Source of the DNA: Bigelowiella natans CCMP2755 | Lineage: Eukaryota; Protista; Cercozoa | Direction: 5' to 3' | Assembly (NCBI GenBank): GCA_000320545.1 | Contig: ADNK01003452.1 | Location: 6,101 to 70,100 of the forward strand | DNA length: 64,000 bases | Shown here: piece by piece, positions 45,790 through 57,260 of the stretch | How the letters are laid out: the number at the start of each line of letters is the position of its first letter | Numbering within the stretch: the first letter of the stretch is position 1 | Made by a program: the position numbers and the translations under genes | The notes under the pieces: generated by a model | Database searches by the model: none | What the model was told of the DNA's origin: nothing | Seen by the model: the letters and a program-made list of their open reading frames with translations, nothing else

Positions 45790-46515
45790 GTCAGGTTGGG
45801 TTATTTAGTTACCCTACACACGATGAAGAGGAGGGGTCAAAGAATAGTGTTCCAAATATCACACACGTTGTTCATTACGTTCTACCAACAAGCAATAACT
45901 TAATTTGACACAATACCAAGACATATGCTGAGTCTTATGGCAGGGTAATAGTGAATAGACAGCATGGTGGGAATCTAAACACAGACCTTTGTCCAAAGCA
46001 AATGCGAACAAATATCGTATGAAACTCAGGGCTAGGGAGGAGATGCAAAGTCAAATGGCAGCATCACCACATTATTGATCATTTCTCGAAATGATGGGGG
46101 ATATTTGCCATAAGGTCTGTAGTACTTGTGTGTGGAGGAGAGGCCAAGTTTTGATATTCGAAATTTTAGATTCTTCATCATCAACACCAAATGGAGAATC
46201 AGCAAACGCTGCACACAGGTAATCTTCATGGTGTATACGGGTTTGGGGAAAAGCGACTATGATCTAACTGGACGAAACAGTAAGAAGGCTGAATATTTTT
46301 TACAGCAAAGCAATGTACGTGCCATGCATGCCACTGTCGTGCACACTATGTGCATCGTGTCATGTTGAAAACCTAAACGTGCGGTCATTGTCTAGCAGAT
46401 GAGGGTAGACAAAATGCTTCATCTTTTATCACACTCCCATGTCTACTTCGAACATCCATCTTCCTCATGTCTCCGTGGTGGAAAAAGTGACAACAGTTTG
46501 AGCCCCCATGTGAGA

Positions 46516-46967
46516 ATGCACAACTCGGTCAAACCCGGTGACACTTGTCTGCAGCGCAAAACTAGAAAAGGCGAGTTGTGCGCGTGCGCGCAGCGTTACT
46601 AATTGATGAATGTGATCACTTATTAACACATCTGCAGTTTGGCCGAGCGTCAAAATGCAATTTTTGACCGAGAAACAACCATCTGCAACAACGTGTCATT
46701 TTCGAAGGCCAAACCGCTGTTTTTGCGACAACGTGAGAACTTTGGCAAGAATTGCAAGCAATGTGCAGCGCTGCAGCAAGCAGTGTTTTGAACACGCAAG
46801 CGTGTGCGCACACGCCAACTGCGTGCACACGAAAATTCCCAGCTGCGTGCGAACACACCTTGCTTTCTCACTGCTGCGCGCTGAAGCTTCAAATCGCTTT
46901 CAAAAGCTCTCGCTTGCTCAAACACAAAGTTCACACTGGCTTACAGGTTTGACCGAGCTGTGTGCAT
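46516..46967. mobile_element. Possible decayed MITE/DNA-transposon relic with inverted repeats
   Basis: ctcggtcaaacc (46524-46535) is the exact reverse complement of ggtttgaccgag (46946-46957), extendable imperfectly to atgcac/gtgcat; internal variants gtttggccgag (~46637) and tttgaccgag (46663-46672). Confidence 0.4.
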
Positions 46968-47472
46968 GTGTCAGGTTGAGTGCGCTGCTATGTGCCACGA
47001 CCGTGCACGCGCGCAAGGTGGTGCTGTGTGCAATTGGTGTGGATTTTGCTTGTTGTTGGGATTCGACACATCGATTGCGTTGTGCGCCACAAAACCAGCA
47101 AAGCAGGATGATGGACAAGCAACGTGTTGCATCACATTGCTGCGTCCGTTGCTAGGTTGTCAGGCAGCACGATGCCATCAACACAGGTGCCGCGTGCGCT
47201 GCGTGCAAGAACCTGAGAGTGTGTGCGCTCACTCACCACGTGCCAGCACGCTGCATGCATGCCTCGATCAGAGTGTGCACCAATCTAGCTAGCTAGCAAT
47301 CTCAGTGTTGCACGTGACACAGCATGCCAGCATGCTGGCATGCTTGCACAGCTTTGATCACACGATGCATCACGTGGGCTTGCTTGGTGAGCTTGTCCCT
47401 CCGCTGCCTGCATTGTCCACACCTGCAACCAGCTAGCTGAACCCACCACCACACCAGCATGCGATGCCAGCA

Positions 47473-47798
47473 TGTAGCGCGTACCACTACGCGGGCACAA
47501 GTCACGTGCGACAACAAAGGGGTTGTCGCGGATATAGAATATAGATAACGTAGATATTAATACAGCATAGGCACGTGGGTTCCGGCGGGACTCATGGCAG
47601 CACACCGGAAGTGTGCTGCCCCACGTGCGGCGGCATTCGCGAAAGCTTCGCGAATGATTACGCAGTGCACGATTTAATAAAAATATAATCTTTAATAAAA
47701 ATAAACACAACTCTTCAAAAGGAAGCAAACGTGCCTTTCCCCCCCCCTGCCTACTTGTGCACGTAGCGCCTCGGCCTGTGAACACCTTACGCGCAACA
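47473..47798 (+). repeat. 5' LTR
   Basis: TGTAGCGCGTA...TACGCGCAACA (10/11 terminal inverted repeat); AATAAA motifs at 47676, 47694 and 47700. Confidence 0.97.
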
Positions 47799-47803
47799 AC
47801 CTT

Positions 47804-47826
47804 TGGCTTCCACACACGGGAAACGA
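47804..47826 (+). promoter_or_regulatory. Primer-binding site, possibly for tRNA-Glu
   Basis: TGGCTTCCACACACGGGAAACGA begins 5 nt after the LTR; its reverse complement TCGTTTCCCGTGTGTGGAAG-CCA looks like a tRNA T-arm/acceptor 3' end, most like tRNA-Glu (identity from memory). Confidence 0.7.
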
Positions 47827-47837
47827 TTTGACTAACA

Positions 47838-48443
47838 ATGTCACAGCAGCTAGAAGAACAGCAGGACTTTGGCTCGCAGGCCGTGCAAGGGCACGAGCAG
47901 AAACAGGAAAGGAAGGGCGATACGGACGCTAAGGAAGGAGGAGGAACACCTCCACAGGCACCGCCGGGACCAGCACCCGGGATTAAGAAAGCAGATGCAG
48001 CAGCAGAGGCACTGGAGAACTTCTACGAGGCGGACGACGAGGACGTGGCCGCCGAAAGCAAGAAGGTCGTAATGGCATTACGAGCCTTGCGACCCAGGGC
48101 GAGCAACTACGCCAAACTGAAAGTATCGATAGAATACAAGTATCAGACACATGATGTTTGGGCAGCTATCATGCAGGACATCATGGATTACGAAGCAGAC
48201 TTACCTCCAGAGTGGGCAGCTTTGTTTAGGAACGACGGGGGTCTGGGCGCCTCGCGGGGGACGACCCAGAGCACCGTCAAGCAGCAGCAGCCGGTACAGC
48301 GGAACACCCAGTTCATGTCTGTTAAAACAGCACCGGTTATGATAACGAAATACAACGGGAAAAGAGGTGAGGCAAGGAGGTGGTGGAAGAACGCTAGGAG
48401 TATACTCTGCGACTTTACCACGTTGCGGATACTGCTCACGTAA
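47838..48443 (+). CDS. gag: Gag N-terminal part (appears truncated or frameshifted)
   Basis: First ATG after the PBS, 201 aa; ends soon after a capsid-start-like segment ITKYNGKRGEARRWWKNARSIL; the zinc knuckle is in the +1 frame. Confidence 0.7.
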   Translation: MSQQLEEQQDFGSQAVQGHEQKQERKGDTDAKEGGGTPPQAPPGPAPGIKKADAAAEALENFYEADDEDVAAESKKVVMALRALRPRASNYAKLKVSIEYKYQTHDVWAAIMQDIMDYEADLPPEWAALFRNDGGLGASRGTTQSTVKQQQPVQRNTQFMSVKTAPVMITKYNGKRGEARRWWKNARSILCDFTTLRILLT

Positions 48444-50322
48444 AGGGAAACACACCGCTAAAGACTGCAGAGACAGGAAAGAAGGACGACCCAGGATGAC
48501 GATCAGGCAGCTCAACGAACACTACGAGAAGTTAAAGAGAAAGAAAGGCAGAGGACAAGGATATAACAACAGCAAATGGCAAGGCAGCAACAACGGGAAG
48601 AACAATAAATATAAGAACAAAAAGCAGAACAGTATCAATGCTATACAGCAGCAGATAAACGGAATATTAGATCACCTTAAGCAGGCGCCGACGAAGACAG
48701 CAGTACCAGCAACGCAGGACCAAGACAAGCCCATGACCCTAGACGACATAAAGAACTTAGGAGTATGCAACATTAATGACGAAGACGCTAACAGGACTAT
48801 CAAAGTTGCTATGACCAAGGTTAAAGTTAAAGACAGCTACGGAGACTACAAGAAACTACCTGCCCTTTGGGATAGTGGCAGCATGCCGAAGTCCTTCATA
48901 AGCCTAAGCACAGTAAGAAGGTTAGGACTATTGGATCAAGTGACTAAGAAAGAACGTAAATATGCTCAAGCAGACGGAAGCTCTTCCATGAAGACCGTCG
49001 GTGAGCTAATGCTAAAGCTACAGATACCTGGCAGCGACGCGGAGACCCAAATCAAGACCCGAGTAGCCATGACTTTATCCATGGAACTACTCCTCGGACA
49101 GGATGCCCTAGAAAAATTAGGGGGGATCATATCATTCTACAATCACAAGATATACTTTGCTAAGTTGCCAAAGAAGTCAGGCAGGACCATCAGCCAGAAC
49201 ATGATACGGCTTGACGAGTGGACCTCTGAGTCAAGCGTTAATGCGTTAGAGTTTATGGACCTAGCGGACAACAAGCTACCTACACCTACCGAGCTACGGA
49301 AGAAGAACCCCGGCAAGACCATCCGACAGATAACGGAGCTACTGGACAAGACCCCCCCAGCTGATGATTGGGATATCGACAAAGGCAAAAAGTACATTAA
49401 TAAAATATTAAACGAGAAGTACTCTGACATCACCAAGCCGACGACGAAGCCCTCCAGCAAGCTTACCCCAGTAAAGATCGAGCTAAAGAAGGGATACGAA
49501 GAGTGCATCATCAATGACCCAAAACATAGGCGACCGGAAGCGGACTGGGAAAAGATAGAGTGGCAGATCAATGAATGGGCAAAGGAAGGGAAGATAGAGC
49601 CAAGCAACTCACCATGGAACGTGAGACATGTGCTAGCTAAGAAACCTACTTACCCTTTCTTCCGCCTGGCGCACAACTTCATCCGCCACAACCGAGTAAT
49701 AAAGAGGATCCAGACACCTACACCAAGGATAGATGACGTTATTGAACACGTCATAGGATACAAATACTACTCTTCCCTAGATAAAAATGAATCATACATG
49801 CAGACACCCATCCACAAAACCTCCCGCCCCATTACCGCGTTCTCCAGCAGGCACAGGAAGTGGCACTTCGTCGTATTCCCTTACGGCCTAAGCATATCAG
49901 GGGATGCGTTCAGTAGTCAGAACTACAGGGCATACACACATGATGGGATGGCGTCTGTGTTGTGGGTGTTTGTGTTTGTGTATGTGGATGATGACATAAT
50001 ATGTACCAACACAGTCGTCGCTCAGATCTTCCTCCTGGAAAATATATTTATTAGGTTTGCACACTTCGGTTTTACTATTAGACTGCAGAAGTGTACATTC
50101 CTAGCTACAAGAATCAAGTGGTGTGGATATTACCTGGAGCAAGGCCGCATCACCCCAAACCCCGAGAAAGTAGCAGCACTACAGCAAGCCCCTAAACCTA
50201 AGAATGCAAAGGAGTTAAAGCATTCTTGCAGACTGCAGCTTGGATACTACGTAGGTTCTCCCCTACCTACGCTAGGACTGCAGCTGCTTTTACTACTGCT
50301 TACCGGAAGGAGAACTCTGTAG
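48367..50322 (+). CDS. pol: Zinc knuckle + aspartic protease + reverse transcriptase
   Basis: CGYCSRKGKHTAKDC (CCHC), ALWDSGS and LLLGQDAL (protease), IEPSNSPW, LDKNESYMQ, FPYGL, YVDD, KCTF...WCGY, PNPEKV...PKNAKELK. Confidence 0.92.
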   Translation: MRQGGGGRTLGVYSATLPRCGYCSRKGKHTAKDCRDRKEGRPRMTIRQLNEHYEKLKRKKGRGQGYNNSKWQGSNNGKNNKYKNKKQNSINAIQQQINGILDHLKQAPTKTAVPATQDQDKPMTLDDIKNLGVCNINDEDANRTIKVAMTKVKVKDSYGDYKKLPALWDSGSMPKSFISLSTVRRLGLLDQVTKKERKYAQADGSSSMKTVGELMLKLQIPGSDAETQIKTRVAMTLSMELLLGQDALEKLGGIISFYNHKIYFAKLPKKSGRTISQNMIRLDEWTSESSVNALEFMDLADNKLPTPTELRKKNPGKTIRQITELLDKTPPADDWDIDKGKKYINKILNEKYSDITKPTTKPSSKLTPVKIELKKGYEECIINDPKHRRPEADWEKIEWQINEWAKEGKIEPSNSPWNVRHVLAKKPTYPFFRLAHNFIRHNRVIKRIQTPTPRIDDVIEHVIGYKYYSSLDKNESYMQTPIHKTSRPITAFSSRHRKWHFVVFPYGLSISGDAFSSQNYRAYTHDGMASVLWVFVFVYVDDDIICTNTVVAQIFLLENIFIRFAHFGFTIRLQKCTFLATRIKWCGYYLEQGRITPNPEKVAALQQAPKPKNAKELKHSCRLQLGYYVGSPLPTLGLQLLLLLLTGRRTL

Positions 50323-52289
50323 GCCTCAGCTTCGCTAAGGTGTGGGCCAAGGCTGGCCTTGATGCCCACTTCGATAACCTAATAAAGTTATGCAGCAACA
50401 CCCTATTGAATGCTAAGCTAGACACTACTAGACCAGCTACCCTATGGACAGACTGGTCTAAGCTAGGTATGGCTGCTGTACTTACCCAAGACCAGCAGAT
50501 CATACGGGTGTGGGGCAGGGCCTGCACAGCAGCTGAGGCCAAGTACAGCCCTACAAAAGGAGAGTATAAAGCCATGACTGAGGCGCAGAGGAAACTAAGA
50601 CACTACCTGCTGTCGGTGCCCAGCTTCACCTTAATGACTGACCACAAGCCCCTCCTAGGCATCGACCGCAAGCTCGAAGCGCCTAACGATGAGTATGCAG
50701 CTATGAGGGCGGACACGGAAGAGTTTAGGGACAAGAGGACAGTGGTCTACGCACCAGGAGACAAGCAGCTTGCTGACTATTTCAGCAGGCTGTTCGAAAA
50801 GAAAGTCCCTACCCAGGTCACCCCTATGGTTAACGCGATTACCTTCGAGGACGGCGACTTCCTGCCTGAGCCAGAGGAGCTCCAGCACCTTCAAGAACAC
50901 CTGGATAAATACAAACACAAGCATGAGGTACTTAGTGATAGGATATATGTATACACTAATAATGTTAGGCGTACCTACGTGCCACGGCGGACCAGGGGAG
51001 CCCTTCTCTTTACCGCCCATGGACCTGCACACGTAGGAGAAAACCATATCACTGCTCTACTCTACCATTACTACTGGCCCTACAAGCTAAAAGAGATAAG
51101 GACATACCTGCGTGGCTGCAGGTGCTCCAGCTTGAAGGCGGCAGGTGTCGCCACCAAGGAGTCCAGCAAGAGCCGTGCATCTAAGAAAATCAAAGCAAGG
51201 AACTTCTTAGATATCGTGCAAATTGATGTTTATAAGTACGATGGCTATCACTACCTTACCTTCGTTGATGTGGCCACTGGAAAGTGCTGGGTTAAAAAGA
51301 TTATCAAGGTCAACGTTGCTAAGAAGAACAAAGGCTTATATAAGCAGAGGCTTACTAACTGCTACCGTACCTGGGAGTCTGAGCTCCAGGCTATCCCTGA
51401 TGAAGTTAGCATAAACAAGATACCAAAGAAGTTACATGTGGATAATGAGACCTCTCTTCTACAGCTACCACACCCTAATATTGATGCCTCACCTGTATAC
51501 TATGCCCAGTCCAACTCCAAGGTAGAGCGACTCCACCGCACCTTGGCCAACCTAAGCAGGATAAATAGCACCACACCAGACAAGATACAAGGGTTAGTAA
51601 ACGACACCTTCACGTCTGGGGGAGGTATCAAGGATAAGGAGAGGGAAGAAGGCGACGACAACGACGACGATACCGAGAGCGAAGACGAGAAGGTCCCGTA
51701 CGATGGCCGAGTTCTAAAGGAAGGACAGTATGTTAGGGCCAAGGTAAATCTGAGATCGAGAAATAAACAAGACCCCTTCTGGGGTGGCGTTGCAAAGGTT
51801 ACCGAGAGGAAGGGGAGGAAGCAGTACTACATCTATGATGGGAACAGGGTCACCTTGCGCCACATCAGTCACCTAAAGAATTATGATATCGGTGAGAAGC
51901 TCCTAGAGGATGTTAAAGTAAACCCTACTGTGTGGGAGCGAGCCATGCCTTGTTTAGGACCCCGACCTAAGTTCGATGTGGAATATGGAAACAATAAGGT
52001 CAGGGTGAACGACGATTGGCGCATGAAGATTGTCTATCTAGGCTACCCTGGATTACGAAATATGGAGAGGGTAGCTATGAAAATAAAGGACGGAAAATAT
52101 CAGCTACTCTACCTAGCTGTTCCCGACTTACCCTTTGAGCACTGGTATAAGGTCCTGGGGGACCTTGATGCAGAGGGCTGGTATGGACACGAACCTAAGG
52201 ACGAAGGTGAGTTCTGGGTAAGCGACAAAGGAGATAAGGTTAGAGAGGAATCTATTACCTGGTGGTTGGTGAAGTTCCGAAAGCGATGA
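50220..52289 (+). CDS. pol: RT thumb + RNase H + integrase + C-terminal Dam-like extension (-1 frame relative to RT)
   Basis: AFLQTAAWILRRFSP, LWTDWSKLGMAAVLTQ, YSPTKGEY, TDHKPL, ADYFSR (RNase H); H-x3-H...CRC, IVQID, HVDN, SNSKVER (integrase); GQYV...DPFWGG...HISHLKNY (GPY/F-like); ~130-aa extra domain to TGA 52289. Confidence 0.9.
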   Translation, partial: AFLQTAAWILRRFSPTYARTAAAFTTAYRKENSVGLSFAKVWAKAGLDAHFDNLIKLCSNTLLNAKLDTTRPATLWTDWSKLGMAAVLTQDQQIIRVWGRACTAAEAKYSPTKGEYKAMTEAQRKLRHYLLSVPSFTLMTDHKPLLGIDRKLEAPNDEYAAMRADTEEFRDKRTVVYAPGDKQLADYFSRLFEKKVPTQVTPMVNAITFEDGDFLPEPEELQHLQEHLDKYKHKHEVLSDRIYVYTNNVRRTYVPRRTRGALLFTAHGPAHVGENHITALLYHYYWPYKLKEIRTYLRGCRCSSLKAAGVATKESSKSRASKKIKARNFLDIVQIDVYKYDGYHYLTFVDVATGKCWVKKIIKVNVAKKNKGLYKQRLTNCYRTWESELQAIPDEVSINKIPKKLHVDNETSLLQLPHPNIDASPVYYAQSNSKVERLHRTLANLSRINSTTPDKIQGLVNDTFTSGGGIKDKEREEGDDNDDDTESEDEKVPYDGRVLKEGQYVRAKVNLRSRNKQDPFWGGVAKVTERKGRKQYYIYDGNRVTLRHISHLKNYDIGEKLLEDVKVNPTVWERAMPCLGPRPKFDVEYGNNKVRVNDDWRMKIVYLGYPGLRNMERVAMKIKDGKYQLLYLAVPDLPFEHWYKVLGDLDAEGWYGHEPKDEGEFWVSDKGDKVREESITWWLVKFRKR

Positions 52290-52332
52290 AGGTCTAAGGG
52301 AATAAGGAAGGAAGGAAGGAGCAACGTGACTT

Positions 52333-52340
52333 GGGGGAGG
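52333..52340 (+). promoter_or_regulatory. Polypurine tract
   Basis: GGGGGAGG abutting the 3' LTR, with a longer purine-rich run at 52296-52321. Confidence 0.8.
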
Positions 52341-52666
52341 TGTAGCGCGTACCACTACGCGGGCACAAGTCACGTGCGACAACAAAGGGGTTGTCGCGGA
52401 TATAGAATATAGATAACGTAGATATTAATACAGCATAGGCACGTGGGTTCCGGCGGGACTCATGGCAGCACACCGGAAGTGTGCTGCCCCACGTGCGGCG
52501 GCATTCGCGAAAGCTTCGCGAATGATTACGCAGTGCACGATTTAATAAAAATATAATCTTTAATAAAAATAAACACAACTCTTCAAAAGGAAGCAAACGT
52601 GCCTTTCCCCCCCCCTGCCTACTTGTGCACGTAGCGCCTCGGCCTGTGAACACCTTACGCGCAACA
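52341..52666 (+). repeat. 3' LTR
   Basis: Same sequence as 47473-47798; preceded by the PPT, followed by TSD AGCA. Confidence 0.97.
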
Positions 52667-53199
52667 AGCACGCACACGCACGCACTGTCTAGCTGTGTCT
52701 GTGAACGACTTTGAGTGCGTGCGCATGCCAGCATGGAACGTGCCAACTCATCTGTTGTTGAAAGAACAAGTGAATGAATGAACGAACCAATTCCAATGCT
52801 TGAGTTGACAGGATCATCATCAGACGCACCAAGTCGTCGTCCATGTCCCCTGACAAAAACAACCAAAGATCGAGGGTTTGGCGTTCAAAAAATGCATCCC
52901 AATTGTTGTGTGCGTCAACGAATCGAACGAAAAAGTCGTTCACATTCATCAAACGACAGCAGTTCGCATGTGTCGTCACAGCAAATCACGTGCCTTTTCC
53001 TTCATTTTTTCAAACGTATTTTTAGCACTCTGCTGCTCTCCTCATCGCTACTCGCATGCAGGAACCCACCTCCACGTGTCATCGATCATAGCCACCTTCC
53101 ACATTTGCAATTGAAGACGACGTTGCAGCCCCTCGAAAGACACACAGAGAGCCCAGCACACTTGGATACGTAGGACATTCCTTTCATTTTAGTGAGGAA

Positions 53200-54034
53200 A
53201 CGAGCAAGTCTGCAGAGCAGAAATCTGGAAAGCAGAAAGGCGTACTCGTCTTTCTTCACGGTATGGATGGTGCATTAATATTTGAATGTTGTTATCATCA
53301 TGACCGGAATGTTTTTTTACAAAACATGGCTACATAGGCAGTGGAGACAATGGTCCAAACTTTCAGAAATGGGTCTACATGGCCTCCAAAGGGAAGTAAT
53401 GTAGCCTCTAAAAACCACATCATTGTGAATCATTTCGCTTGCGTACACTTTAGTGATTTCCCTTTGGAAAGGCTGTCAAATATTCTATCCCATAAGTTTG
53501 TCACCCATAATCTTGTTGGATTAGATTTGAAAGCACGCTCGCTAACAATGGCATAGCTGTTGTGTATCCTTCTGCAAAATGTATTCCTTATACTCTCGCA
53601 GGTCAAGTTCAATGTTATACAACATTGCTCCTTATCTGTCCTGTCTTCCTCCTTTATAGCAATCAATGACATATCTGTAGATCCTTTTGCAGAATATTTT
53701 GTGTTGTGGGTTATTCCAAAATATTTTATCGTTCCTCTAATTGCAGCCGGGATGAAGATGTCAGTATGGCATGATAGGTAGTAGTAGAGTTTGCAAATAG
53801 CACGCACTAGTCTTGATAAATTGTGATGGTGGTGAACAAATGATTTCAATCATGATATCTATAGCGGTTGATTGTGTTCATCCTCATCATCGCCATCATC
53901 ACTTAGAACGGGTTTGGGACCGAAGTTTCCAGAAGATACAGAAGGCATACGCAATTCTCTAGAAAGTCTCGACAAGAACATTCTGAATCCCCTAGCAACC
54001 AAAGGTACTACTCCCCAATATACCACACGCACAC

Positions 54035-55899: not shown

Positions 55900-57260
55900 T
55901 TCGTTCAGTATGTGATTGCTCAGCTTGTCACTCTAGCACTGCTAGACTGCAACGTGCGGACAACCAAATGCCCATCATCTTCTGCTAGTTCAGCTGGTTC
56001 AGCACGCCTAGCATCATGACTGACCGCATGTTCGCAATGGGTTCATCTGCACCTAGCATCACCAGATCATGATGGACTGCATTGCCAACACCATGATCAT
56101 GCTGGCAACCAGCATCACACATTGATTGCACGTTTTCAACTCTTTCAAGACATTGCCTTTCCCACAACGTGCTGGCATGGAAAATCAAAGCAGCGCGCAT
56201 AGCCTTCGGCACGTGTCAAACAATGATGATCTCGTGCCTGCTGGCCTGGCTAGCCAGCTAGCTGGCCACAGCAGCCACACCGCACGTTGCGTTGAATTGC
56301 GAAAGGTCGAACGTGCTGAACAAAGCTGTGAGTGCGATGTTTTTGCAATGACAATCACCAAATCAGCGCGCACACTCTGGCACTGCTGGACTGGTGCACG
56401 TCTGGCACGCACCATCAAGCTGGACCACACGACAACTTTGAGCACAAGGAAGTTTTGCCAGTTTGTGCAGACTCTCAATTGGCAAGAACTGGAGAAGGAT
56501 CGAAAACTGGAAAAGGTTGCACGCTGCGACTCCAAGTGAAGCCCCTTCTCGCGCACCACAAGCCGTTCCAGCGTTGTGTCCACCACACACCACCAGACCG
56601 CCACACTCCGTGGCACTTGGGTGTCGCAGTTTGGAGAGCACCTGCAGAGGTGTGGAGGTGCTGGCATGGCTCCAAGGCTCCTCGTTCGCGTCAGAGTGAC
56701 ACGTGGCACTCTGAAGGGGACAAATCACTGTCAACAAGACCGTTCGAAACCTTGCAATGCAGCACGTGCACCAGCGCAGCACCAGTTGCTCTTGGCTTGC
56801 ACTTTGTTCGTTCGTTCTTTTGGTCAATTGCTCACTCGCTTGGCTTTTTCCCAACTCCCAAAAAGCTCCAGGTTCAAGAAAGGTTCAACAAGGTTCGTGT
56901 CCACATTGAAGTTCCAACGGGCACTAGCATCACAACCAACTCGATGCACCTCCACTGGATTGGAAAGCGTGCTAGCGGTGCAGCATGCAGGTGAGTGAAA
57001 ACAGGTCGAGGGTCCTCCATCGCTGTGTCTGAAATCCTGTTCAAGTTGATTCAGTTGCTGCCACTTGAACGACGAAATTGAGATGATGAGGTTGGTTGTG
57101 GCAGCAGACATTTGATGCACACCACTGGGCAACCGACAACTCTAAGACATTTCAGACTCAAAGACAATCTTTGTGTGCTATGCAAGGCAACTTCGTCACT
57201 GTCAAGTCGCATGTCTGAAATGCAATGTCAAAATTCATGGAATCTCATGCACATCACATC
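55900..57260. other. TpA-depleted island 3
   Basis: 55921-57120: 10 TA in 1200 bp, 9 in CTAG; no TA at all in 56261-56924 (664 bp); many overlapping Tyr-free ORFs on both strands. Confidence 0.9.

Follow-up and report, generated by a model that had tools for sequence, protein, structure and literature searches.

A conserved integrase tail with a predicted, probably inactive Dam/PCIF1-type methyltransferase fold in a Ty3/Gypsy retrotransposon family of Bigelowiella natans

At this locus of Bigelowiella natans CCMP2755 the integrase of a Ty3/Gypsy LTR retrotransposon runs on well beyond its GPY/F-like module, raising the question of what the additional tail is and what it might do for the element. 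A sequence-only reading of the 64,000-nt stretch of DNA analyzed here (the window, from contig ADNK01003452.1) had proposed a degenerate Dam-like N6-adenine methyltransferase domain standing where chromoviruses carry a chromodomain, possibly dead and reused for recognition that steers integration. The element occupies positions 47473-52666 and is bounded by two 326-bp LTRs with zero differences between them and by a 4-bp target-site duplication, with the following features:

47469..47472 (left) and 52667-52670 (right), + strand: 4-bp target-site duplication, read from the sequence
47473..47798, + strand: 5' LTR of 326 bp with TG...CA termini, without differences from the 3' LTR
47804..47820, + strand: putative primer-binding site, starting TGG 5 nt past the LTR and assigned from its position
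47838..48443, + strand: start of gag, with 521 bp absent at 48419/48420 relative to contigs from two other runs
48346..50322, + strand: gag zinc knuckle, aspartic protease and reverse transcriptase, with a frameshift near 50220 in the window copy
50202..51896, + strand: RNase H, integrase zinc finger, DDE core, acidic linker and GPY/F-like (SH3-type) module
51897..52289, + strand: integrase C-terminal tail, predicted Dam/PCIF1-type N6-adenine methyltransferase fold with the catalytic motif replaced
51975..51986, + strand: DVEY, probably what is left of SAM-binding motif I, its register not fixed by hhalign
52041..52052, + strand: GYPG in place of NPP[YF], following strand 45-48 of the tail model
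52333..52340, + strand: polypurine tract ahead of the 3' LTR, read from the sequence
52341..52666, + strand: 3' LTR, 326 bp

Pfam gave the domain order gag, protease, reverse transcriptase (RT), RNase H and integrase, with matches to RNase H and to the H2C2 integrase zinc finger, and the D-D-E residues of the integrase core are present in the ORF at 50202-52289. In a nearest-structure search with one family member, the closest solved RT was that of Ty3 (E 4e-40), the next family following at 1e-16. The GPY/F-like module reads W-x-G-P in its homologues, and its profile weakly matched the SH3-like protein eL21 (E 0.006). A tRNA gene search of the 64-kb window found none. The window copy is a defective member of a young family: relative to the contigs of two other runs it lacks 521 bp of gag, is shifted in frame by one base near 50220 and differs by four private SNPs. 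The same element was recovered as one collapsed contig of 5,420 nt in five runs, where the window flanks had no coverage, a pattern that fits either high copy number or extrachromosomal DNA. Proteins identical across the tail are JGI ‘Bigna1’ gene models. Related elements have a single continuous frame of 1,635-1,680 aa from gag to tail, so that the tail would be produced as the end of the polyprotein.

The tail comprises 130 aa (51897-52286) and closes the ORF, the stop lying 51 bp before the 3' LTR. The peptide on which the earlier proposal was built was located in this ORF, with GYPG and DVEY at the positions listed above, and the tail does occupy the chromodomain position of chromoviruses, following the GPY/F-like module and running to the stop. 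Pfam showed no chromodomain there, the tail alone had no Pfam match even at E 10, and the stretch from GPY/F to the stop was modelled entirely as one alpha/beta domain. The chromovirus chromodomain thus shares its place after GPY/F with the tail and differs from it in fold, and a targeting role for the tail would be an analogy.

A family search of 1.84 billion representative proteins returned 46 proteins, comprising eight near-identical copies, one protein at 67% identity and 37 at 29-43% identity to the tail; the alignment used below consists of the query and these 37 relatives (38 rows), the other nine being left out. The tail is conserved among diverged family members, although the degree of conservation is somewhat inflated because the relatives were retrieved with the tail itself. 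Among all collected proteins outside the window element’s own family, 59 of 62 tail rows lay ≤25 aa from the C-terminus, and integrase or GPY/F motifs preceded the tail in 28 of the 30 rows that extend upstream of it. Cluster mates are counted here, so that the rows are non-independent; the exceptions were two secondary rows with weak matches and a mutated copy that has a C-terminal extension. Scanning metagenome contigs with an integrase motif gave three loci, two of which carry the tail domain by HMM (the same elements as P0015 and P0037), the third ending in an apparent start of the domain, and no relatives of the tail were found in viral contigs. In pairwise comparisons of 11 elements, RNase H had a mean identity of 0.52, the integrase core 0.46, GPY/F 0.44 and the C-terminal half of the tail 0.34; the N-terminal half of the tail reached 0.20 and the linkers 0.21-0.25. 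In two pairs for which DNA was compared, second codon positions of the tail were 0.57-0.60 identical and third positions 0.34-0.38, similar to the integrase core, which indicates purifying selection on the tail, a point that the sequence-only reading had put forward for checking across copies. In a tree of the tail domain 6 of 30 inner branches were well supported, leaving it mostly unresolved and silent on origin.

The case for kinship to methyltransferases comes chiefly from the predicted fold. AlphaFold2 with the 38-row alignment gave an alpha/beta domain with a pLDDT of 97.0 for the tail and a pTM of 0.90; a single-sequence run (tail pLDDT 38) was discarded. A Foldseek search of predicted viral structures with this model produced 10 matches at E ≤ 0.001 (4.2e-6 to 7e-4, TM 0.61-0.65), six of them named methyltransferases (five N6-adenine) and four unnamed, with viral PCIF1-like proteins coming next. 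The expectation of similarity to Dam-like structures was thus borne out with viral Dam-type models (E 4e-6 to 7e-4). Against the PDB, Foldseek gave no match at E ≤ 0.001, PCIF1/CAPAM being the top entry at E 0.01. With VIA-align against 48,161 PDB chains PCIF1 was again first, at a Z of 7.2 followed by a runner-up at 6.0, values in a range (Z < 8) that can reflect a common arrangement; the chains ranked below PCIF1 are, by title or name, SAM-dependent methyltransferases. A VIA-align comparison of the tail model with human PCIF1 gave a Z of 8.2 and an rmsd of 3.5 Å over 122 aligned residues. Identity between the tail and its structural matches was 7-16%.

Sequence profiles were marginal. Alignment of the tail profile by hhalign with 12 and with 35 phage Dams gave P values of 0.01-0.05 and the same collinear alignment each time, in which GYPG lies opposite NPPY and the vP..W motifs coincide. 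Against the 35 Dams the score was 19.1, compared with 12.2 ± 2.4 for column shuffles (maximum 19.4, one of 149 above the real score), and against the 12 Dams it was 17.0, the best of 100 column shuffles reaching 18.8; with the untrimmed tail alignment against one Dam, hhalign found nothing. The Pfam Dam family was matched by 1/30 and 1/28 scanned proteins at E 0.032, below the cut-off, and the gathering score of PF05869 was missed by the best member (14.4 bits vs 28.1), the query giving none. The collinear match described in the sequence-only reading was recovered, with marginal profile scores. PHROGs yielded a Dam family match in 0/27 tail proteins, PDB sequence searches with the tail returned chance matches only, and the ESM Atlas had no usable match for two family members. 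When one member was searched by tblastn against 50,697 phage records, the eight best E-values (0.2-0.7) belonged to six annotated Dam genes and two unannotated ones.

Weak sequence scores, Z values of only 7-8 and the 7-16% identity to structural matches could be read to mean that the tail is a convergent small alpha/beta domain without kinship to methyltransferases. This is highly improbable, as four separate searches (Foldseek against viral models, VIA-align against the PDB, Pfam and the phage tblastn) agree on the subfamily. On the strength of its modelled fold, the tail is very probably homologous to the Dam/DIRS/PCIF1-type N6-adenine methyltransferases.

Kinship of fold does not extend to the catalytic motif. 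In the tail model GYPG lies in the loop that links strand 45-48 to helix 53-65. NPP[YF] was present at this site in 35/35 non-redundant phage Dams vs 0/34 tails covering it, and the wider pattern [NDS]PP[YFW] was likewise found in 0/34, the site reading GYPG in 15 tails, another x-[YFW]-P in 10 and TpA-type variants in seven, with no Pro in the remaining two; GCPG, GHPG and GRPG are products expected of TpA mutation in GYPG. The loss of the motif first noticed in the window copy thus extends to the whole family, with no NPP[FY]-intact copy among the 34. A register shifted by one, placing Y on N, likewise leaves no catalytic Asn. The DIRS domains read F-P-P at this site. The SAM-binding segment is shortened by about 10 residues, as had been suggested: taking D27 as the motif I Asp, the spacing from Asp to motif IV is 19-24 aa in the tails (n=28; 22 aa in 20/28) vs 32-35 aa in 29/30 phage Dams. 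This half of the tail is short and linker-like in its divergence, and the other half keeps W83, W95, W107, W122, P76 and several acidic positions.

Taken at sequence level, these features make the tail a likely pseudo-methyltransferase, catalytically dead, and there is a good probability that it performs no methyl transfer. The opposite view, in which a rewired site would still methylate adenine in cDNA or target DNA, as proposed for the DAM-LTRs discussed below, could draw on the intact predicted fold, on the retention of a motif-I-like Asp (24/32 tails) and the motif-IV Pro (32/34), and on variants such as the S-F-P-[LF] subgroup and one tail reading N-Y-V-G at the catalytic site. It is quite unlikely given that 34/34 tails lack Asn/Asp/Ser-Pro-Pro-aromatic, that the SAM-binding half is some 10 residues short and has diverged like linkers, and that even NPP-intact retroelement DAMs yielded no 6mA in E. 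coli (10.64898/2026.05.21.726589). The members of the SFP[LF] subgroup (P0051, P0052, P0065 and P0066) are divergent and come nearest to the canonical motif; their integrase-side module is likewise more divergent.

Methyltransferase domains in LTR elements have precedents. Cytosine methyltransferases have been described in Gypsy Pol (De Mendoza et al., PMC5890265), and the main text of Fernandez-Moreno et al. (10.64898/2026.05.21.726589) reports five DAM-LTR lineages with a conserved NPP, inferred to be DIRS-derived, which came from an hmmsearch of EukProt v3 (E < 1e-5) and showed no activity in E. coli. Like the window element, these are Ty3/Gypsy elements with a Dam-like domain in the Pol frame (recognized here by predicted fold and position), but they keep Asn-Pro-Pro, whereas the window family lacks the triplet and is shorter. 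Members of the window family score E ≥ 0.03 and so would be missed by a screen at E < 1e-5. The main text of that paper contains no mention of ‘Bigelowiella’, ‘chlorarachni’, ‘Rhizaria’ or ‘inactive’, and its supplements might list rhizarian sequences. In the account of Iyer et al. (PMC4738411), DIRS domains are grouped with PCIF1 and considered likely inactive through catalytic and substrate-binding substitutions; by this description they resemble the tail in being retroelement-borne, PCIF1-like in fold and likely inactive. DIRS elements have a tyrosine recombinase, in contrast to the DDE integrase with H2C2 zinc finger, direct LTRs and target-site duplication of the window element. The phage Dams of PF05869 (from T1, lambdoid and Vibrio phages), which provided the best viral-model matches, share with the tail the order W, motif-IV strand, helix and vP..W, but have NPP[YF] in 35/35 against none of the tails and 10-11 more residues in the SAM-binding segment.

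On balance, the tail is best read as a conserved integrase C-terminal domain of predicted Dam/DIRS/PCIF1-type fold, likely dead, that would serve as a binding module tethering the integration complex to a chromatin partner, a proposal that we hold with somewhat better than even confidence. An ancestral element may have captured a Dam-like domain, as in other LTR lineages, after which the SAM-binding half would have decayed and shortened and the catalytic Asn been lost; the half from motif IV onward, with its near-invariant Trp and acidic residues, might then have been kept by selection through binding. From its place after the GPY/F module we infer that the tail could travel with the mature integrase and act like a chromodomain in tethering. 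The tail family is net acidic (median charge −4, 20/30 negative, median pI 5.2) and phage Dams are neutral, so that plain DNA binding is not favored; the acidic, aromatic-rich tail may bind protein rather than DNA, and a basic protein (e.g. a histone tail) or a flipped base would fit the chemistry better than the DNA backbone as a candidate ligand.

Recognition of the RNA cap by PCIF1 requires parts beyond the shared methyltransferase domain. These parts are absent from the tail, and this, together with the net acidic character of the family, speaks against a role inside the particle, where the dead domain would bind element RNA, its cap or cDNA ends, or prop the integrase structurally. Such a role is conceivable, if on the unlikely side, in that the nearest solved fold, PCIF1, is an RNA-cap enzyme, and Iyer et al. 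(PMC4738411) suggest for inactive DIRS domains that they contact template transcripts or mimic PCIF1.

Tethering, the preferred reading, leads to the question of where the element has inserted. The surrounding DNA forms an island in two parts:

46400..47472, no strand: TpA-depleted, TpG/CpA-rich island, left part, into which the element is inserted
52667..53100, no strand: right part of the same island

The ratio of observed to expected TpA (O/E) was 0.24 at 46400-47472 and 0.22 at 52669-53200 vs 1.13 in the element coding region, and values <0.3 were found in 3/116 other 500-bp tiles of the window. The adenine-mutated island described around the element is therefore real, with flank values of 0.22-0.24. 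A mutator converting TpA to TpG/CpA in foreign DNA has been reported in B. natans (Mettrop et al., 10.64898/2026.01.13.699255); the island carries its signature, and this hypermutation explains both the island and the mutated family copies. The main text of that report mentions no retrotransposon, LTR, integrase or methyltransferase, leaving the mutator unlinked to the window element. Since the LTRs are identical and the island halves lie on both sides of the target duplication, the element was inserted into an older island. Island-type DNA makes up ~5% of the window and holds one solid insertion site of the element. This is no more than suggestive of targeting, and the location would equally follow if insertions simply survive where the DNA is dispensable. 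Three 30-nt flanks of other copies looked island-like by eye (no TpA outside CTAG, 6-9 TpG+CpA), a rule that 62% of 30-mers within islands satisfy, compared with 7% of those outside; they were rejected as proof of targeting since the rule was set post hoc and only assembly-deep flanks, which favor repeats, are visible. The more specific idea that the tail is a reader derived from a dead adenine methyltransferase, recognizing a mark on mutator-targeted DNA or chromatin and steering insertions into silenced islands, is tentative and, as a whole, unlikely. If true, the tail would be the first example of an integrase targeting module with this fold, offering a handle on how the mutator’s targets are marked.

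The same island invites the thought that the tail might shield the element from the host TpA-to-TpG/CpA mutator or act as its decoy. The host does mutate TpA in foreign DNA (10.64898/2026.01.13.699255) and the window copy keeps its TpA (O/E 1.13) within an erased island; several metagenomic relatives also show Tyr-to-Cys/His changes, so that the clade likely lives in mutator-bearing hosts. Such counter-defence is very unlikely, because family copies are themselves mutated, one of the four private SNPs of the window copy is TpA-to-CpA, and youth alone, as seen from the identical LTRs, accounts for intact TpA. Outright immunity of the element to the mutator is ruled out, 16/18 amino-acid changes in copy P0004 fitting TpA mutation. 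The Tyr-to-Cys/His changes were noted by eye in P0040, P0041, P0042, P0043, P0048 and P0065, and the metagenomic locus L067 had a TpA O/E of 0.38; together, Tyr changes and low TpA make it likely that the mutator is present in other hosts of the clade.

Dam domains in LTR elements and the TpA mutator are already in print (10.64898/2026.05.21.726589; 10.64898/2026.01.13.699255), and the window family belongs with the DAM-LTRs as a degenerate variant and does not amount to a new kind of system. The family is real and conserved, and seems not to have been described: a search of literature listings, with limited coverage of subscription journals, turned up no account of the window element or of a Gypsy integrase ending in a degenerate Dam domain. 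As an added methyltransferase-carrying LTR lineage missed by profile screens, it implies that Dam capture by retroelements is likely undercounted in the literature. It also separates fold from chemistry, since selection keeps the tail domain without the catalytic motif, and thereby bears on the question of whether the DAM domains of retroelements have any methylating activity, NPP-intact ones having produced no 6mA in E. coli. Because the host is an alga in culture, with a young family present in multiple copies and an unusual mutator directed at adenine, targeting can be tested from existing assemblies.

Some further observations concern the locus and its relatives. A second, stronger TpA-erased island lies at 55900-57200 (O/E 0.13 in 56001-57000), where leftover TA steps are often in CTAG. 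Each LTR contains two imperfect palindromes of 23-25 nt (47596-47656 and 52464-52524), and an exact match to the LTR start was found in no viral or prokaryote contig. Two more distinct families of the clade occur among B. natans gene models (P0020 and P0024), with tails lacking any Tyr, consistent with heavy TpA mutation. The host gene models P0005, P0007, P0008, P0009 and P0014 fuse an element tail with adjoining host exons, indicating that copies adjoin ordinary genes. One clade member, P0033 (GJL66747.1), is recorded under a ‘Nitrospirales bacterium’ MAG as a hypothetical protein and probably represents a mis-binned eukaryotic contig. Finally, across 48737-52130 the contigs of two RNA runs (the RNA nature of one being a guess) omit ten segments of 56-165 nt with GT..AG borders on the minus strand, and the exons that remain are as short as 27-78 nt; this is a heavily spliced antisense transcript across pol, tail included.
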